Assembly: GCA_000091205.1 (NCBI GenBank)
Contig: AP006495.2
Strand: one strand, 5' to 3'
Length of the DNA stretch: 64,000 nucleotides
From: Cyanidioschyzon merolae
Lineage: Eukaryota
Under the pieces are notes generated by a model. It had not been told where the DNA came from. It made no database searches and saw only the letters and a program-made list of their open reading frames with translations. Position 1 is the first letter of the stretch. Every line of letters starts with the position of its first letter. Below, in pieces: positions 2,781 through 13,348 of this stretch. A program made the position numbers and the translations under genes.

Positions 2781-4655
2781 TCAGAAATACTCCGCAAATT
2801 CATTGCGCAAGCGCTCAGCGCTCTGTGACTTGCGCAGTTTTGCTAGCGCCGCAAACGATATCTGACGCACACGCTCTTTCGAAACGTTCAAAATCGCTGC
2901 TACCTGTTGCAGCGTTTTCGGTTCATCGTCGTCCAGTCCAAATCGCAATCTCAGGACAAACACCTCTCGATCATTCAACACAGATCGCAGCAAGCGTAAA
3001 ACTGCATCCTTCATGAAAGAGTCCACGAGATCCTCTTCGTCCCGAGGGTCTGCAATGGACTCAAGAAAGCTGCCGCTGTCGGGATCAGGGTCCTCAGTCG
3101 TATCCATACCGCGATCAAAGGAGAGCACCTGGCGGTTCACTTGTTCGAAGACAAAGCGCACCTTGTCGGGCGCCATGCCCGCGCGCTCTGCGAGTTCATC
3201 CTCGGTGGGTTCCCGACCCAGCTCTGCAGTGAGCAATCGCCGCAGCTTGCGTAGGCGCTGGTACGCATCGGTGACACGCGACGGTAGCCGAATAATCCTC
3301 GACGCTTCATCAAGCGTTCTAAAAATGGACGCACGGATCCACCACGAGGCGAATGTGCTAAAGCGGTACCCGCGGGATCCATCGAAACGCTCGGCTGCTC
3401 GAATGAGTCCTATCGAGCCTTCCTGCATCAGATCGCTCATGGTGACACCAATCGCCTCTGCACGCCGGCTGAATCGATTGACAATTGCATTCACCAGACG
3501 CAAGTTGCTGGTTACGAGACGATTCCGGGCCTGGTGTCCGCGAGCAAGCGCCTCCTGCAGCTCCGCAGCAGACTTCATGTTCAGCGCCCGTGCCCACTCC
3601 TGAGATGTCGGTGGTCGATGGAGCATCTTCTCTAGATCTTGTCGTTTCTCTTCGATTCTATTCAAGTGCTGCACTTCGCGCGCGAGCGCTACTTCCTCCT
3701 CATGCTCGATAAGTTGATAGCGACGAATTTCATCCAAATAATCGAAAAGCGAGTCGCGGTTCTGGCGTTCACCAGCGCTACTGCTGCTGCTGCTGCTGGT
3801 GTTCACGCTATCATCCGTGGCAAGCGACGGCTCTGCCATTGCATCCAAGGTCAACGAGCGCTCCCCTAGCTGCATTGCTTCGTCGTCGTCGTCCTCGTCG
3901 TTGTCGTCGTCTGTTTCGACAGGTCCATCGTACTTAGAGCTGCGACCTCGTTCCCGAAGCACGTCATCACTTTGGCCTTCGCGCTGCGCAGCCGCTGCTC
4001 GTTCTCGCTGCTCTCGTTCCATCTGCTGCACTTCAAGTCGCTTACGTTGTTCTTCTCGCAAACGCTCTTTCGCCAACTCGGTGAGCGCTTCCAGCTTCTC
4101 TTTACGTGGTTTGCGCCCACCCTTCTTCGCCGAATTGTCTTCGGTTTCCTTTCGTGCTGGTAGAGACGCCTCAGCGGAGGCTTGCTCCAGCGACCGCTTG
4201 CGTGGCTGGTCCGGCTCCGCATACGTCTTAACAGACTTTGACGCGGAGCTGTCTTTCTCAGACTTGCTCCTGGAGCGCGGCGCCCGTGCACGTTTCGACC
4301 TGCGGCCGCTGGGGCCCTCGGTCCGGGCCGAGGGCCGCTCGGCTTCACTGGGGCTCTGCATTCGCGGCTTGCTTGTCGGTATGCCGTCGAGCGCTATACT
4401 GCGCACTGCTGGCACCCGTCGCTGTACAGATAGGTCCACGAGTTGTGACGGTTGAATCCCTCGTCGCCTGAACCAGGACCGAGTACGCCCGGTGAAGAGC
4501 GCCACGGTGAAACCCACCCGCATAGAAGTTCTCCCCGATCCAGAGCGCTGGATCATAACCGCATCAGTGTCAATGTGCCGATACCTTCCCCTAGATTCTG
4601 AAACTGTAAGTGTTTCAGGTCTCAGAACAGCGGCGCGTGCACTATTCTTCCGCAA
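2781..4655 (-). CDS. Sigma-70 family RNA polymerase sigma factor (group-1/2-like). It is nuclear-encoded, so the plastid is the expected destination. A roughly 330-aa acidic/Ser/Lys-rich N-terminal extension precedes conserved regions 2, 3 and 4
   Basis: Region 2 DLMQEGSIGLIRAAERFD, region 1.2/2.1-like NLRLVNAIVNRF, and region 4.2 TLQQVAAILNVSKERVRQISFAALAKLRK. The N-terminus is Arg/Ser/Thr-rich, resembling a transit peptide. Confidence 0.85.
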   Translation of the reverse strand: MRKNSARAAVLRPETLTVSESRGRYRHIDTDAVMIQRSGSGRTSMRVGFTVALFTGRTRSWFRRRGIQPSQLVDLSVQRRVPAVRSIALDGIPTSKPRMQSPSEAERPSARTEGPSGRRSKRARAPRSRSKSEKDSSASKSVKTYAEPDQPRKRSLEQASAEASLPARKETEDNSAKKGGRKPRKEKLEALTELAKERLREEQRKRLEVQQMEREQRERAAAAQREGQSDDVLRERGRSSKYDGPVETDDDNDEDDDDEAMQLGERSLTLDAMAEPSLATDDSVNTSSSSSSSAGERQNRDSLFDYLDEIRRYQLIEHEEEVALAREVQHLNRIEEKRQDLEKMLHRPPTSQEWARALNMKSAAELQEALARGHQARNRLVTSNLRLVNAIVNRFSRRAEAIGVTMSDLMQEGSIGLIRAAERFDGSRGYRFSTFASWWIRASIFRTLDEASRIIRLPSRVTDAYQRLRKLRRLLTAELGREPTEDELAERAGMAPDKVRFVFEQVNRQVLSFDRGMDTTEDPDPDSGSFLESIADPRDEEDLVDSFMKDAVLRLLRSVLNDREVFVLRLRFGLDDDEPKTLQQVAAILNVSKERVRQISFAALAKLRKSQSAERLRNEFAEYF

Positions 4656-7446: not shown

Positions 7447-8991
7447 ATGGATGCAACTGCTCATATAGGCAGTGCGTTTGATCTCCGGGGGAATATCGGC
7501 GAAGAAAGCCCTCTCTCAGTGGAGAACGAGGCACCACCAAACGCTTTTCAGGGCACGCGGGGCTCGGACACGGAAAATGATAGCCGACTCTCGCTCGGTG
7601 CGCTTTCGTCCTATGCGCCGTTGCTTGTGGAAGTTGCTTGCCAGCTAAGCAAGTTACGAGATCGACTAAACGACTTGGAGCATCAATCGAGAAAATCGAG
7701 CTGTGTCCAAGACCAGCTGGGTGCACTTGCCAATCAGGTAGCCGTATTAGAGGAGCGCTTGCGCCAGCACGTGCTGGCTCGCGAGCACTGGTGCGCTGCT
7801 GAATCCGTTCCCGAACGGAAATCCCTCCTCGAAAGCGAGGATGCATCGGACGCTGTGGACAAACTCGCCGAGGAGTTCAGAGACCAATTTTTAGACATCA
7901 GAGCGTTCGAGCTCCGCCTCACTCAAGCGGTCAACGCGCGCTTTCTGGAACTCTATCGCTGGACGGAGTCCCAATTGACCCGTCTCGAGGAAAGACTTGC
8001 CAGCATCGACGTGGACGGCTCTCTGAAGCGCGAGATGGCCACGCATGCAGAGCAAATAGGTCAAAAACTGGAACACCTTGAATCGGGCATGCGTTCGTGC
8101 ATTTCACGCGAGGAGTGGTCACGTGAGCGTGACGCCCTTGAAAAGCACCTTCGCCATGATCTCGGCGAGTGCGCGAATCGCAACGCGTCGTCGAAACCGT
8201 CGGCACCCACAGAGCAGGGCACAACCTCAACCTCAGTTGCGCTGGATGCGATGCGTAGTGTCATGCACCTCCAGAGCACCGTCGAGGGGAATGCTCGCGC
8301 TGTCGAGGACGCCCTCACAGCAGTACGCACGAGCTGCCAAGCGCTCAACCAACGTCTGCAAAGAATAGAACACCAGTTAACAACGGATGAATTCGTCGGC
8401 GGCGCTGGCATGCGACAGGTCGCGCCACCACCAGACTGGAACCAGATCCAGCAAACCGTCCGAAAACTCGAAAGCCAGCTGCAGAAACTATCTTCCCGGT
8501 TACCGGATCCCGAAGAAATACACACCGCCGTAACACAGACCAAGGAACTAACTGGCCGGAACGATCAACTCGAACGAAGAGTAGAGCGCTTGCACGTCCA
8601 AATGGAAAGCGAGCGGAACCAGCGCAGCGAGCTGGAGCACAAGGTAACCCGCCTGGAGGACTTTACCAGCACTTTACAATCACTACCCGCCGAGTTGACG
8701 AGTCTCACCAAGTCCATGACCCAAGGCGATGAAGTTCTACAAGAGTGGGTGCGCGGCCAGCTCCAACGACTCGATGCGCGACTCCATGAACACGAATCTT
8801 CACTACACGAGCTTCGTGCGGAGACGGCGCACCTCTACGAACAGTATGCGGAAGTAGCAGCTCTGATCCTGTTGATGACTCCAGCCGACAACCGGGCCAC
8901 AGTGGAGCGACGAATTCGACAACTATTGCCGGGCCTTGGAGCGCTGAAATTGCCCGCATCACGCGCTGGCACCTCCGAGGACACCCGCTGA
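7447..8991 (+). CDS. Coiled-coil protein (514 aa) of unknown function
   Basis: Long ORF with heptad-like Leu/Glu/Arg/Gln-rich segments (LEERLRQH, LESQLQKLSSRL, RLEDFTSTLQS). Confidence 0.5.
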   Translation: MDATAHIGSAFDLRGNIGEESPLSVENEAPPNAFQGTRGSDTENDSRLSLGALSSYAPLLVEVACQLSKLRDRLNDLEHQSRKSSCVQDQLGALANQVAVLEERLRQHVLAREHWCAAESVPERKSLLESEDASDAVDKLAEEFRDQFLDIRAFELRLTQAVNARFLELYRWTESQLTRLEERLASIDVDGSLKREMATHAEQIGQKLEHLESGMRSCISREEWSRERDALEKHLRHDLGECANRNASSKPSAPTEQGTTSTSVALDAMRSVMHLQSTVEGNARAVEDALTAVRTSCQALNQRLQRIEHQLTTDEFVGGAGMRQVAPPPDWNQIQQTVRKLESQLQKLSSRLPDPEEIHTAVTQTKELTGRNDQLERRVERLHVQMESERNQRSELEHKVTRLEDFTSTLQSLPAELTSLTKSMTQGDEVLQEWVRGQLQRLDARLHEHESSLHELRAETAHLYEQYAEVAALILLMTPADNRATVERRIRQLLPGLGALKLPASRAGTSEDTR

Positions 8992-9356: not shown

Positions 9357-9425
9357 GTGCTGCTGCTGCTGCGGCGGCGGCAGCGGCGGCAGCGGCGGCA
9401 GCGGCAGCGGCAGCGGCAGCGGGCA
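9357..9425. repeat. GC-rich tri/hexanucleotide microsatellite, (GCT)n then (GGC/GCA)n, in the convergent 3' intergenic region
   Basis: gctgctgctgctgcggcggcggcagcggcggcagcggcggcagcggcagcggcagcggcagcggg. Confidence 0.7.
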
Positions 9426-9670: not shown

Positions 9671-12600
9671 TCAGGGCGCGGCACGCTGTAGCGCATCCGC
9701 GCGCAGCACCAGGCCGTACACGTACGGGCCGCGCACTCCGCCGTGTGCGTGTCGATCCCACTCGCCGGTGACCTCCAGGTTCAGTATTTTGCTGAAAAAT
9801 TGTTTGATTCGGTAAATTCTGAGCGGCTCCCGATGAGCGGCACCTTGACCAGCCCGTGGTGGTGCACTGTATCGATTGAAGTGGTCTTTGAGATTCCGTA
9901 AACGTACGAAATCCGTGCTCTTGGGGTTTCGGCGCACATTCTCTGTGATATCGTAGTGCTGGAGAAGGAAACCCGCGAATCGGGCGTACGCGTTATCGCT
10001 CCGGTGGATGCGCTCCAGCAGTTCGAGTCGTTCGCTCCGGGTCTGGGGCGGCTCGACGTCTCCCAGACCCTCAAGGGTGATCGGTGCTGTGCGGTCGCTC
10101 GAGGCCGACGAAGAGCGCACGTCGAGACTTTCGCCACTGGCGCCTTGCTCGAGCCAGCGGCTTCCAGCGGGGGCACGCGTTGCGTCATGGTGCAAGGCGC
10201 TGGATCCGGGAGCAGGAGCCTCATTCGGGGCGGATCCATCGCGCGTTCGCTGCTGGGCCGGTGCTTGCGGTGCGGCTGCAGCACCGGACGCTCTTCGCTT
10301 GGTTTTCGCTGCAGATGATACGCTGCCCGCTGTATCATGTTCTAAGCGCTGCGTAACTCGCGCGGCAGCCACCGCGGGGAACCTCTCTGGCATCGTCAAG
10401 TCAGGGTTGGTGCAAACGCCTTCGTCAGCTAGTGCACGTTTCCGTCCAGCTCTGTCCTCTAGATACCGCGCAGCTTCGCCATTATCGTACCGAGTCGAGG
10501 TCGATGCCGGCATCGCGCCGGGTCGCCGGTGCACGCTCGCATCCTCAGCTGCCGACAACGACGGACGCTCATTGATAAGCGCCCACGAGGCAGGTGCGGA
10601 AACGCTGGTTTCGGGTCCCAGCGAATGACCCGGTGCTGGGCGAGGCATGGCGCCCGGTTCTCCGGACTCGAACGCAAAAACAGACCCGGGCAGGTTGGCG
10701 TTCAGCATCGATCGAGTACCCATCGGCTGCGACTGTGACCCCGGTAACGTGGCGGTGCCTCGTGAACTGCCTCGACCGTGGCCCGCCCCACCAGTATGGT
10801 GCAGCAACAGCGGCGATGCGCTCGTGGTACCTGGATCAACCGCCGCGTTGGGCGTGCGCATCATCTGGCCGGGTGACAGGGCTGCCGCCGCTCCACCAGC
10901 CGTCACAAGCGATCGGCTTCCCGACGTCGACACATGCACCGCGGACGACGGATGACTGGCGTTTGGCGCTACAATGCCGCTCAGGCTACTGAGATGCTCC
11001 GTCGGAGGCGCGCGCATAAAGTCAGGATTTGTTCCCGGGACTCGTCCAGTGGGCTCCATGATCGAGCCGCGTGCAAGTGGCGTGGTTGCACCAGCAGACA
11101 AGAGTGCATGAAACGAATCGACGCGGTGCAGTTTCTCGGTGTAGGAATCTTCATCCACGCTACTTGGAGCTCCCACGACGACCTCGGGTATGCTGCGGTC
11201 GGAGCCGCCGCCGCCGCCGCCGCCGCCACCACCAACGCCGCTGCTGCCCATGCCCATGCCGCTCGAAACAAGCGCCATTTGTTGGTTCCCAAATGTGCCC
11301 GCACTCACACCGTACATCAAAGAGGAGCCTCCGTTTCCGCCACCTGGTCCCTGAGCGTAACCGTTACTGCCGCCAAGACCCGGGGAAGGCCCCGCCAGCT
11401 GCGCGCCATTCGCCCCGCTCGCACTGCCGCCCAGATCAAAAACGTTGTGCAGCGGATCGTCTTGGCTCATGGACCAGACCCGTGGGAGCAGTCCAACATG
11501 ATCGCCTCCGATCGAATCACCAGCTATTTCCTGATCATCGATGCTGGCGTCGCTATCTCGCATGGGACGCTCAGGCTGCCTTCCGCTAGGTAGTTCGTGA
11601 CCAAGATCGCTCAGCCCGAAGAGGTCTTCCTGTTTAGAATCCAACACGTTGTAGACCTCATCAATGGGCCAATCGCTCATGAGTTCCTGAGTCCCCTTCA
11701 GCGATAGCGTATTCGGGACCCGCACACCGTAGCCGCGCTTGTTCAGCACAACTTGGCGAAGGTATCGAAGCGCGTCCCGGGCTCGGCGACGTGCTACCCG
11801 ATTCTCGACAACCGGTCGCGGATAGGTGACACCCAGTTCAACCCTAGCCTGATGCAGAATCGTCGGAGGGCATTTCCACACCGCATGGATGTAGCTACTG
11901 GGGATCTGTTGCAACTCTGGACACCAGGTACGCACGTACTCACCCTCGGGGTCTACGCGCATGCCCATCACGACTGGGTTCACGAGGCAATTCAAGGGGA
12001 AAACGTCGTAGTTGCAGCCCGTCACCCACTGCCAGCAGATCGCGTTGCTCGCCAGATCGCCATCGATGAATAGTTTGAAGAGGCAACGAGCCCCGATCTG
12101 CCACGGCAGGAGAAGGTACTTGGTAAAAAAAGAAGCTACAAGAAACCGCAGATTCGAATGCAACCAGCCGGTGTGGTGCAGTTCCCGCATTGCCGCATCA
12201 ACGAGTGGGTAGCCCGTGCGTCCCGAGAGCCACACCTCGAGGAGACGGCCCACATCTTCCTTGGTGCATGGAAAATGATCAAATTCTGGCACCAGTGGTC
12301 TATCCAGGATCGATGGTCGGTAAAATAGCATATGATAAGCGTACTCGCGGAGGCAGAGGTTTCTCAGGAGCGTTCGAGCAGCCCGAATTATTGCATCTGA
12401 TGGCTCAGACTGCAGTACAGACGCCCGAACAGCGTGGTAGAGGCGCCGCGGTGACAATTCTCCGAACCGTAGGTACGGCGAAAGCCGTGATGTCCCGTTT
12501 CGGAGACGCTGTCGTCTTCGAGCGTCCCCATACGTCGGAAAGACACTCGTCAAGAAGTCTTGCAGGCGCTCTGCTACACAATCCACGCCGGGGCGCCAGT

Positions 12601-13348
12601 ACTCCTCAAGGCTGCCTAAGTTGTGTATCTGGTTCCACCAAATTCCCATTTCAGTGTCGGTATCCTCGCCGCCGGGCGACTGCAGCACATCCGACGGTTG
12701 CATCGTGGACTCGGGCACAGCGAACAGAGGCCCCTGATCTCCCGACTGGGAGGCAATGAGCGGCTCTATTCGCTTAGGTGCAGGCAACGGCTCTGGGGGT
12801 GGTGGCATAGCCATCCACGCTGACATGAACTCGTGGAAGGTGTCGAGCGGACGGTCCCCAAAGCTCGCGGGCCTGCTCTCTGTTGCACAAACCTCCCACG
12901 GCTCGACCAGGAGCTCCGCCTTGAAGGACTCAACAGCCAGGCGGTGGTGCTTCGACCATCGCCGCCGCACTTCCTCATCTCTGCGTAACACAACAGGGTC
13001 GTAGACCCGATTCCAGTACACAGCCTCGGCACCGCAGCGTTTCACGACCTCCAGAAGCGTCGTCTCGACGCCGCCGCCGCCGCCGCTTTCCGACTTCGCA
13101 CGCCTCAGAATTAACCCGGTTTCGCAACCTAGCTCCCGAAGTCGTCGGTCAAGTGCAACAATGGAACGACTCAACCACCAACGTGCCGGTCGGCCGAGAC
13201 ACCACATACCGTCCTCTTCGGGTGCCCAGATGAACACCGGCACCACCGGGCCTCCGCGCTGCACGGCAGCAAGCAACGCTGGCATGTCCTCAACACGGAG
13301 GTCGTGGCCGCGGTACCACACAACCGAAGGTCGTCTCGACGACGACAT
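9671..13348 (-). CDS. Cryptochrome/photolyase family protein (1225 aa). The N-terminal roughly 600-aa photolyase-homology region is followed by a roughly 600-aa Gly/Ser/Ala-rich low-complexity C-terminal extension
   Basis: N-terminal alpha/beta domain VVWYRGHDLRVEDMPALL...PVFIW. FAD-binding domain TSRLSPYLRFGELSPRRLY, GYPLVDAAMRELHHTGWLHSNLRFLVASFF, NAICWQWVTGCNYD, DPEGEYVRTWCPELQQIP (plant-CRY / class III CPD-like WQW motif). Confidence 0.85.
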   Translation of the reverse strand: MSSSRRPSVVWYRGHDLRVEDMPALLAAVQRGGPVVPVFIWAPEEDGMWCLGRPARWWLSRSIVALDRRLRELGCETGLILRRAKSESGGGGGVETTLLEVVKRCGAEAVYWNRVYDPVVLRRDEEVRRRWSKHHRLAVESFKAELLVEPWEVCATESRPASFGDRPLDTFHEFMSAWMAMPPPPEPLPAPKRIEPLIASQSGDQGPLFAVPESTMQPSDVLQSPGGEDTDTEMGIWWNQIHNLGSLEEYWRPGVDCVAERLQDFLTSVFPTYGDARRRQRLRNGTSRLSPYLRFGELSPRRLYHAVRASVLQSEPSDAIIRAARTLLRNLCLREYAYHMLFYRPSILDRPLVPEFDHFPCTKEDVGRLLEVWLSGRTGYPLVDAAMRELHHTGWLHSNLRFLVASFFTKYLLLPWQIGARCLFKLFIDGDLASNAICWQWVTGCNYDVFPLNCLVNPVVMGMRVDPEGEYVRTWCPELQQIPSSYIHAVWKCPPTILHQARVELGVTYPRPVVENRVARRRARDALRYLRQVVLNKRGYGVRVPNTLSLKGTQELMSDWPIDEVYNVLDSKQEDLFGLSDLGHELPSGRQPERPMRDSDASIDDQEIAGDSIGGDHVGLLPRVWSMSQDDPLHNVFDLGGSASGANGAQLAGPSPGLGGSNGYAQGPGGGNGGSSLMYGVSAGTFGNQQMALVSSGMGMGSSGVGGGGGGGGGGSDRSIPEVVVGAPSSVDEDSYTEKLHRVDSFHALLSAGATTPLARGSIMEPTGRVPGTNPDFMRAPPTEHLSSLSGIVAPNASHPSSAVHVSTSGSRSLVTAGGAAAALSPGQMMRTPNAAVDPGTTSASPLLLHHTGGAGHGRGSSRGTATLPGSQSQPMGTRSMLNANLPGSVFAFESGEPGAMPRPAPGHSLGPETSVSAPASWALINERPSLSAAEDASVHRRPGAMPASTSTRYDNGEAARYLEDRAGRKRALADEGVCTNPDLTMPERFPAVAAARVTQRLEHDTAGSVSSAAKTKRRASGAAAAPQAPAQQRTRDGSAPNEAPAPGSSALHHDATRAPAGSRWLEQGASGESLDVRSSSASSDRTAPITLEGLGDVEPPQTRSERLELLERIHRSDNAYARFAGFLLQHYDITENVRRNPKSTDFVRLRNLKDHFNRYSAPPRAGQGAAHREPLRIYRIKQFFSKILNLEVTGEWDRHAHGGVRGPYVYGLVLRADALQRAAP

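Follow-up and report, generated by a model that had tools for sequence, protein, structure and literature searches.

Plant cryptochromes (CRYs) are activated by photo-oligomerisation, and aureochromes are flavin photoreceptors that combine a LOV and a bZIP domain and show light-regulated DNA binding. Red algae, to our knowledge, have no phytochromes. In the red alga Cyanidioschyzon merolae, no plant-type photoreceptors are known besides cryptochromes (PMC8504449), and a published phylogeny contains an unassigned branch of five red algae beside PCRY (PMC9498864). Here we analysed a cryptochrome gene in a 64,000-nucleotide stretch of C. merolae contig AP006495.2 (assembly GCA_000091205.1; hereafter the window). 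The complete coding sequence, including the stop codon, occupies positions 9671-13348 on the minus strand and forms a single uninterrupted open reading frame (ORF) of 1225 amino acids (aa), as seen in the ORF list. By exact-sequence look-up, its product is the C. merolae 10D "probable cryptochrome" XP_005536993.1 / BAM80957.1, for which we use the alternative name CmPHR3 (C. merolae PHR3) from the CZON-cutter preprint. The gene and its cryptochrome annotation are already known, and reviews list a plant-type CRY for C. merolae. We describe the protein as three modules: a photolyase-homology region (PHR), a long linker predicted to be disordered, and a conserved C-terminal domain (CTD) with the predicted fold of a winged helix. 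We consider the chances about even that CmPHR3 is a red-alga-specific cryptochrome in which sensor, disordered tether and winged-helix effector couple light to DNA binding and transcription. All features of the gene given below lie on the minus strand, with window positions in parentheses.

The CTD comprises residues 1096-1225 (9674-10063). It has a net charge of +7 and an ordinary composition, with 29% hydrophobic residues and 13 aromatics. An exhaustive phmmer search with residues 1090-1225 against 1.84 billion representative proteins returned 57 proteins at E ≤ 1e-3, of which 33 reached E ≤ 1e-10, and in nearly all of the 57 the domain lies at the extreme C-terminus. According to motif searches, every CTD protein of at least 850 aa also has a PHR; the shorter matches are located on short contigs and are fragment-like. 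The named carriers are all Rhodophyta: Cyanidium caldarium, Cyanidiococcus yangmingshanensis, Porphyridium purpureum, Hildenbrandia rubra, Agarophyton chilense, Palmaria palmata, Galdieria yellowstonensis (2 proteins), G. phlegrea (1), and Rhodosorus marinus (3 paralogues). The CTD has been kept from Cyanidiophyceae to Florideophyceae, and the same exhaustive search found none among named proteins outside the red algae. Judged by named sequences, the cryptochrome family with this CTD thus far appears to be confined to red algae. In an alignment of 30 CTDs, 13 columns are invariant and a further 12 nearly so, and these are concentrated in the signature K.FFSK.L.LEVTGEWDRH.HGGVRGPYVYG (residues 1182-1212; 9713-9805). 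The invariant residues include R1149, K1182, R1199, and R1206, and the basic wing region is the most conserved part of the domain. A transcript from MMETSP (P0018, 681 aa) is near-identical to Rhodosorus P0017 through the PHR and early linker and stops early (…REVGQCQSLLKE) without a CTD; it could come from an isoform, from a difference between strains, or from a transcript that is unspliced or truncated. In the accessible literature, with some key papers outside the search, we found no prior description of a conserved folded CTD in red-algal cryptochromes. Nor did that literature yield anything relevant linking a red-algal cryptochrome with RFX, a winged helix, or a DNA-binding domain.

Structure prediction with AlphaFold2 (AF2) yielded a confident model of the CTD (residues 1100-1225), with a predicted local distance difference test score (pLDDT) of 88 and a predicted template modelling score (pTM) of 0.81. 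When residues 530-1225 were modelled together, residues ~1099-1225 again reached pLDDT values of 80-95, and the secondary structure was the same in the two independent runs. The predicted order of elements is helix, helix, strand, strand, helix, helix, long loop, β-hairpin, and final helix, and the predicted structure has an RFX-type winged-helix fold. The two best structural matches of the model were the DNA-binding domains of RFX1/RFX5 and the origin-binding domain of phage P4. On the basis of this model, the CTD is predicted to be a winged helix of the RFX/P4-origin-binding structural type of ~110-125 aa. RFX domains act as dimers on palindromic sites. Canonical RFX genes have been reported from unikonts only (PMC12183034). 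In a viral structure library, the CTD had weak yet consistent matches; these were winged helices of D5/P4-type primase-helicases that giant viruses and phages encode, among them those of Bodo saltans virus, Hokovirus, Mimivirus-like viruses, and virophages.

The CTD is the last part of a tail that extends ~685 aa beyond the PHR (residues 541-1225), longer than the ~600 aa estimated in an earlier reading of the DNA from its letters alone (the sequence-only reading). That reading had described the tail as low-complexity, rich in Gly, Ser, Ala, and Pro, unusually long, and probably serving as disordered scaffolding. The compositional bias is real in the linker, where these four residues make up 48-52% (43.6% in residues 541-1225, 51.9% in 641-1095, and 27.2% in the PHR), but residues 1096-1225 have a normal composition, are conserved, and are predicted to fold. 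Likewise, the tail is long in comparison with land-plant CRYs but ordinary in its own family, whose members total 795-1758 aa. The linkers between PHR and CTD in this family range from ~100 to 1050 aa and cannot be aligned, with C. merolae in the middle of the range. Using pLDDT as a proxy for disorder, the AF2 model of residues 530-1225 stays below 50 over residues 538-1088, save for one marginal helix at ~562-576. Regular expressions for the DAS motifs (DQxVP, acidic stretch, STAES) and the VP motif had no match in the whole protein, and no bipartite nuclear-localisation motif was found.

Several segments can be distinguished within the linker. Directly after the PHR lies an acidic segment (residues 541-640; 11429-11728) with a net charge of -13, which contains two short islands conserved in comparison with Cyanidium. 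The first (residues 554-577, QELMSDWPIDEVYNVLDSKQEDLF) includes the marginal predicted helix, placed at 562-576, and the second (residues 611-632, …LLPRVWSMSQDDP) has an "LW.L" core that recurs family-wide, with the consensus "LWxLxxxxxP", and is also present in Rhodosorus sequences. A Gly-rich low-complexity block follows (residues 641-714; 11207-11428; 28% Gly), with a run of ten Gly at 706-715. The block is specific to C. merolae and missing from Cyanidium, to which residues 651-700 have 0% identity, and environmental variants carry in-frame deletions of 2, 3, and 6 Gly in the run. Together with a G5 run at residues 89-93 (window 13082-13087 = codons 88-89), which sits within the α/β domain of the PHR, the G10 run (11204-11233) differs in length among environmental strains, always by multiples of 3 nt. 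The remainder is a variable, Ser/Ala/Pro/Gly-rich linker predicted to be disordered, with pLDDT below 50 (residues 715-1095; 10064-11206), which starts with a third island (residues 715-750) conserved in the Cyanidium caldarium orthologue. Three short motifs are common to CmPHR3 and its environmental relatives P0136 and P0137, namely GRKR (residues 968-971; 10436-10447), KTKRR (1015-1019; 10292-10306), and RSSSASSDR (1078-1086; 10091-10117), and these could serve as nuclear-localisation or phosphorylation sites.

The linker also evolves differently from the domains that flank it. Identity to Cyanidium caldarium is 12-28% over residues 751-1100 and 48-60% in the final 125 residues. Polymorphism in six environmental contigs, from which the counts are small, amounts to 8 synonymous and 5 non-synonymous changes in the PHR (pN/pS 0.21), 6 and 10 in the linker 541-1095 (pN/pS 0.59; 0.65 for segment 715-1095), and 1 and 0 in the CTD. 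Low pLDDT, biased composition, low identity to Cyanidium, and a pN/pS of 0.59 vs. 0.21 in the PHR all agree with a disordered linker over residues 538-1088, and to this extent the scaffolding proposal is borne out. It is, on the other hand, very improbable that the entire C-terminal half is a low-complexity disordered scaffold without a folded part. Such a picture would account for the ~550 of 685 tail residues that are Gly/Ser/Ala/Pro-rich, predicted to be disordered, and under relaxed constraint, but it does not account for residues ~1099-1225, which are predicted to fold at pLDDT 80-95 and retain 36-68% identity across red-algal classes, over which the linker is unalignable. As a complete description of the tail it is contradicted.

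The PHR (residues 1-540; 11729-13348), delimited by Pfam and PDB sequence matches, has the architecture of the cryptochrome/photolyase family. It contains PF00875 at residues 8-190 (12779-13327; E = 4.5e-32) and PF03441 at residues 328-527 (11768-12367; E = 2.6e-64), and aligns over its full length with the PHR of AtCRY1; Pfam searches of the whole protein gave no match beyond residue 527. The sequence-only reading correctly recognised a complete PHR with motifs resembling plant CRYs and class III photolyases, WQWVTG at residues 439-444 and DPEGEYVRTW at 466-475. Top-ranking PDB matches are CRY1 and CRY2 of maize and Arabidopsis (E 1e-100 to 1e-87; ZmCRY1 8e-100, AtCRY1 7e-96), followed by the class III photolyase PhrA of Agrobacterium (8e-77). 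In a large database, the best-matching non-family proteins are ~480-aa class III photolyases from bacteria, at ~40% identity, whose class III status was confirmed by a score of 515 bits to PhrA.

In a neighbour-joining (NJ) tree of 476 columns with 200 bootstrap replicates, the red-algal family and the plant CRYs were each monophyletic with 100% support and were sisters at 94.5%. The red-algal family is a sister clade located outside the plant CRYs rather than nested within them, and includes ~25 members without a name. Class III was paraphyletic, with the red-algal and plant-CRY clades arising from a class III grade. This sister placement agrees with the published red-algal branch adjoining PCRY (PMC9498864). 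As the motifs in the sequence-only reading suggested, the PHR lies at the boundary between plant CRYs and class III by the PDB ranking and the 94.5% sister relation, and it groups outside the class III CPD (cyclobutane pyrimidine dimer) photolyases.

To compare the residues around the substrate and flavin, we tabulated 37 PHRs of the red-algal family, 42 class III proteins, four plant CRYs, and E. coli Phr, with the numbering checked against E. coli. Two residues of the CPD pocket are lost in the segment N330-L-C-L333 (12350-12361), where N330 corresponds to E. coli E274 and L333 to W277. The E274 site is N in 33/37 red-algal proteins, E or Q in all 42 of class III, and S or G in plant CRYs, and the W277 site is L in 33/37, W in 42/42, and L, respectively. 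E. coli M345 is replaced by F402 (12143-12145); here, F is found in 32 of the 37 family members, M in 42/42 class III proteins, and V in plant CRYs. With N330, L333, and F402, CmPHR3 thus has the pocket loss expected of a plant CRY. It lacks the Asp at flavin N5, the proton donor of plant CRYs. According to the AtCRY1 alignment and the family table, the photolyase-type Asn435 (12044-12046) occupies this position (E. coli N378, AtCRY1 D396), which is N in 35/37 family members and 42/42 class III proteins and D in 4/4 plant CRYs. The site of E. coli W384 is W in 35/37 family members and in class III, and Y in plant CRYs; in CmPHR3, Trp441 is at the position of plant Tyr402. The class III pocket is therefore incomplete, with the N378 and W384 equivalents kept and the other three residues replaced.

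The sequence-only reading had also proposed checking the Trp triad and the FAD contacts. The contact motifs TSRLSPYL, R401, and D429/D431 are kept in the alignment, as are the proximal W439 (12032-12034) and middle W416 (12101-12103) of the triad, but the distal position (AtCRY1 W324, E. coli W306) is Cys361 (12266-12268). Among the family, 33/37 members have an intact triad and a distal Cys is found solely in C. merolae and Cyanidium caldarium, which suggests a lineage-specific change of the photoreduction path in these two. A second Galdieria paralogue, P0164 (G. yellowstonensis KAK4522534, 861 aa), has Ser for the proximal Trp, Asn at the W384 equivalent, and Phe for the distal Trp, and its CTD signature is altered too (VSDERDRH); this protein may be a light-insensitive derivative.

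Judging from these residues and the tree, the PHR most resembles a sensor of the cryptochrome kind that is related to plant CRYs and photolyase-like in the residues surrounding the flavin. A further explanation would make CmPHR3 an enzyme of DNA repair: a photolyase that acts on some lesion, with the C-terminal winged helix tethering the protein to DNA or chromatin. At flavin N5 the photolyase-type Asn is retained, as is the stacking Trp at the W384 equivalent, both unlike in plant CRYs; these would suit such an enzyme, as would the scores of bacterial class III proteins against the PHR, which equal or exceed those of plant CRYs (~367-410 bits vs. ~340 bits), and the fact that other C. merolae proteins in the cryptochrome/photolyase family do repair DNA. 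Metagenome annotations also read "deoxyribodipyrimidine photo-lyase", but these names are automatic and derived from Pfam domains alone. Against this, 32-33 of 37 family members have the replacements E274→N, W277→L, and M345→F where 42/42 class III proteins keep E/Q, W, and M, and the family groups with plant CRYs, outside the class III photolyases. We regard a repair function as improbable, and the loss of these three residues, which are retained throughout class III, is in keeping with the sequence-only expectation of a photoreceptor rather than a pure repair enzyme. As a side note on the metagenome records, the prokaryote-style callers behind JGI gene calls P0002-P0014 placed the starts of the orthologues at Val codons inside the frame (residue 10 or 35); their N-terminal truncation and "photo-lyase" name (in full, deoxyribodipyrimidine photo-lyase) are annotation artefacts.

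How might such a protein work? As module 1, an FAD-binding PHR, sister to plant CRYs and with its CPD-binding pocket lost, would act as the light sensor. Module 2 is the long, fast-evolving linker predicted to be disordered, carrying short conserved motifs and basic patches and inflated in C. merolae by the species-specific Gly-rich insertion, and module 3 the predicted ~110-125-aa C-terminal winged helix of the RFX/P4-origin-binding type. Blue light would photoreduce the flavin, and the PHR would then change its conformation and/or oligomerisation as in plant CRYs. As a result, the tethered, positively charged winged helices could become more or less available to nuclear DNA or change in their avidity for it. 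Light would in this way be coupled directly to DNA binding and transcription, a logic like that of the LOV-bZIP aureochromes built from other parts. The scheme, which presupposes light sensing, a nuclear location in C. merolae, and DNA binding by the CTD under light control, is consistent with the photo-oligomerisation of plant CRYs, with RFX dimers on palindromes, and with a Gracilariopsis "pCRY" that was nuclear when expressed in Arabidopsis (PMC10853006). In its specific form, a one-component red-algal cryptochrome that is also a DNA-binding protein, with light-induced changes in the PHR gating an RFX-like winged helix on a disordered tether, we consider it possible, at a little short of an even chance.

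The main competitor is classical cryptochrome signalling through protein-protein contacts, where the winged-helix CTD would be a protein-interaction or autoinhibitory module that does not bind DNA; darkness could see it docked on the PHR and light free it, or it could recruit a partner. We judge this rather unlikely, though clearly ahead of a repair enzyme with a DNA tether, against which the lost pocket speaks. The CTD's two top structural matches, like its viral ones, are winged helices that bind DNA and recognise it through the wing, the basic wing region is the most conserved part of the domain, and the net charge of +7 points in the same direction. Contacts with proteins and binding to DNA are, moreover, not mutually exclusive.

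Several observations weigh against the proposed light-gated DNA-binding cryptochrome. Pfam searches of all 30 CTDs at E ≤ 10 matched no family, a CTD profile against PDB sequences reached a best E of 0.21 with RFX chains absent from the results, hhalign of the CTD against RFX1 and RFX5 gave a probability of 0.7%, and Foldseek against the PDB returned no significant match. No sequence method ties the CTD to a DNA-binding family. Furthermore, the CTD position that corresponds to RFX1 K45 is not conserved, and its third helix is separated from the wing by a conserved loop of 20 residues (LEVTGEWDRH.HGG), so the RFX binding mode cannot be copied. On the side of the sensor, Cys361 takes the place of the distal Trp and Asn435 indicates photolyase-like flavin chemistry, and the photocycle of CmPHR3 may differ from that of plant CRYs. 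The tree is an NJ tree with just four land-plant CRYs, and long-branch attraction between the red-algal and plant-CRY groups is possible. Finally, the searchable literature contains no expression, localisation, or binding data on CmPHR3.

Membership of the CTD in the RFX family (PF02257) was a separate candidate, suspected from FFGK.L…G.RGPYVYG, and failed in the Pfam, PDB-profile, and hhalign comparisons. As all sequence-level tests for RFX failed, we claim only an RFX-like fold and no RFX family membership.

The fusion of PHR, linker, and CTD in one protein could in principle be an annotation artefact, with two genes joined through a missed stop codon or intron. We found no support for this, although GC-rich DNA does yield long spurious ORFs, and overlapping ORFs of 100-220 aa are present here. 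An unbroken frame runs through the reference and through six independent environmental metagenome contigs, which contain the entire 3675-nt frame without stops or a frameshift and, at the DNA level, with in-frame indels only. The 12 environmental variants have 99% protein identity, with indels confined to Gly runs and all in frame. The same fusion is present in all family members of at least 850 aa, and Rhodosorus transcripts marked "complete" encode PHR, linker, and CTD on one mRNA. Introns are also almost absent from C. merolae genes. We consider the chance of an artefact negligible, and the mis-joined downstream ORF that the sequence-only reading had named as a possible refutation is ruled out by the six stop-free contigs and the complete Rhodosorus transcripts.

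The surroundings of the gene in the window contain further features of interest. A 624-aa ORF at 2781-4655 on the minus strand has sigma-70 regions 1.2, 2, 3, and 4, and is a nuclear-encoded sigma factor of the plastid RNA polymerase, located ~5 kb from the cryptochrome gene. A 514-aa coiled-coil-like ORF (7447-8991, plus strand), whose sole match is a faint one to NPV_P10, lies next to the cryptochrome gene in convergent orientation, an arrangement conserved in environmental contigs, including L004-L006. The 680-bp gap between these two convergent genes contains a tandem repeat, (GCGGCA)n / (GCGGCGGCA)n, at 9371-9422, which gives rise to spurious poly-Ala and poly-Arg ORFs on both strands.

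If the proposed mechanism holds, CmPHR3 would be the first cryptochrome to carry a DNA-binding effector domain of its own. Cryptochrome tails are usually viewed as disordered, poorly conserved signalling appendages, whereas the tails of this red-algal clade end in a conserved domain predicted to be folded, for which neither Pfam nor the solved structures offer a relative by sequence and which is known only from Rhodophyta by named sequences. A receptor with its own DNA-binding module would be a short and testable answer to the question of how a blue-light signal reaches the nucleus, in an organism that is genetically tractable, and if light-gated binding is real, the module could serve optogenetics. 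Should the CTD bind proteins instead, it would still be a new conserved signalling domain that defines a cryptochrome subfamily left unassigned by published phylogenies.

Among known photoreceptors and repair enzymes, the plant CRYs (Arabidopsis CRY1/CRY2, maize CRY1/CRY2, and Chlamydomonas pCRY) provide the best PDB matches to CmPHR3 and the sister clade of its family. Both share the loss of the CPD pocket, with L in place of W277 and E274 exchanged for a small or polar residue, and a long disordered C-terminal extension, the tail of Chlamydomonas pCRY also being described as long. CmPHR3 differs from them in having Asn435 for Asp396, Trp441 for Tyr402, and Phe402 for Val363, in lacking the DQxVP, STAES (DAS), and VP motifs, and in a tail that ends in a predicted winged helix. 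The class III CPD photolyases (Agrobacterium tumefaciens PhrA, PDB 4u63) are ~40% identical to it and likewise have Asn at flavin N5, a W384 equivalent, and the Trp chain; unlike CmPHR3, they keep E/Q274, W277, and M345 and consist of ~480 aa with no extension. With the winged helices of RFX1 (1dp7), RFX5 (8zjr), and P4 / D5-primase (1ka8), the CTD has no significant sequence or profile similarity, and it has an extra N-terminal helix and the conserved 20-residue loop before the wing. Finally, the aureochromes of stramenopile algae (LOV + bZIP) and dualchrome (phytochrome + CRY) are comparable as photosensor-effector fusions found in one algal lineage. Light-regulated DNA binding has been demonstrated for aureochromes and is hypothesised for CmPHR3, whose sensor is a PHR and not a LOV domain, whose effector is a predicted winged helix and not a bZIP, and in which the order and spacing of the modules differ, with a disordered tether of 100-1050 aa separating sensor and effector in the CmPHR3 family.

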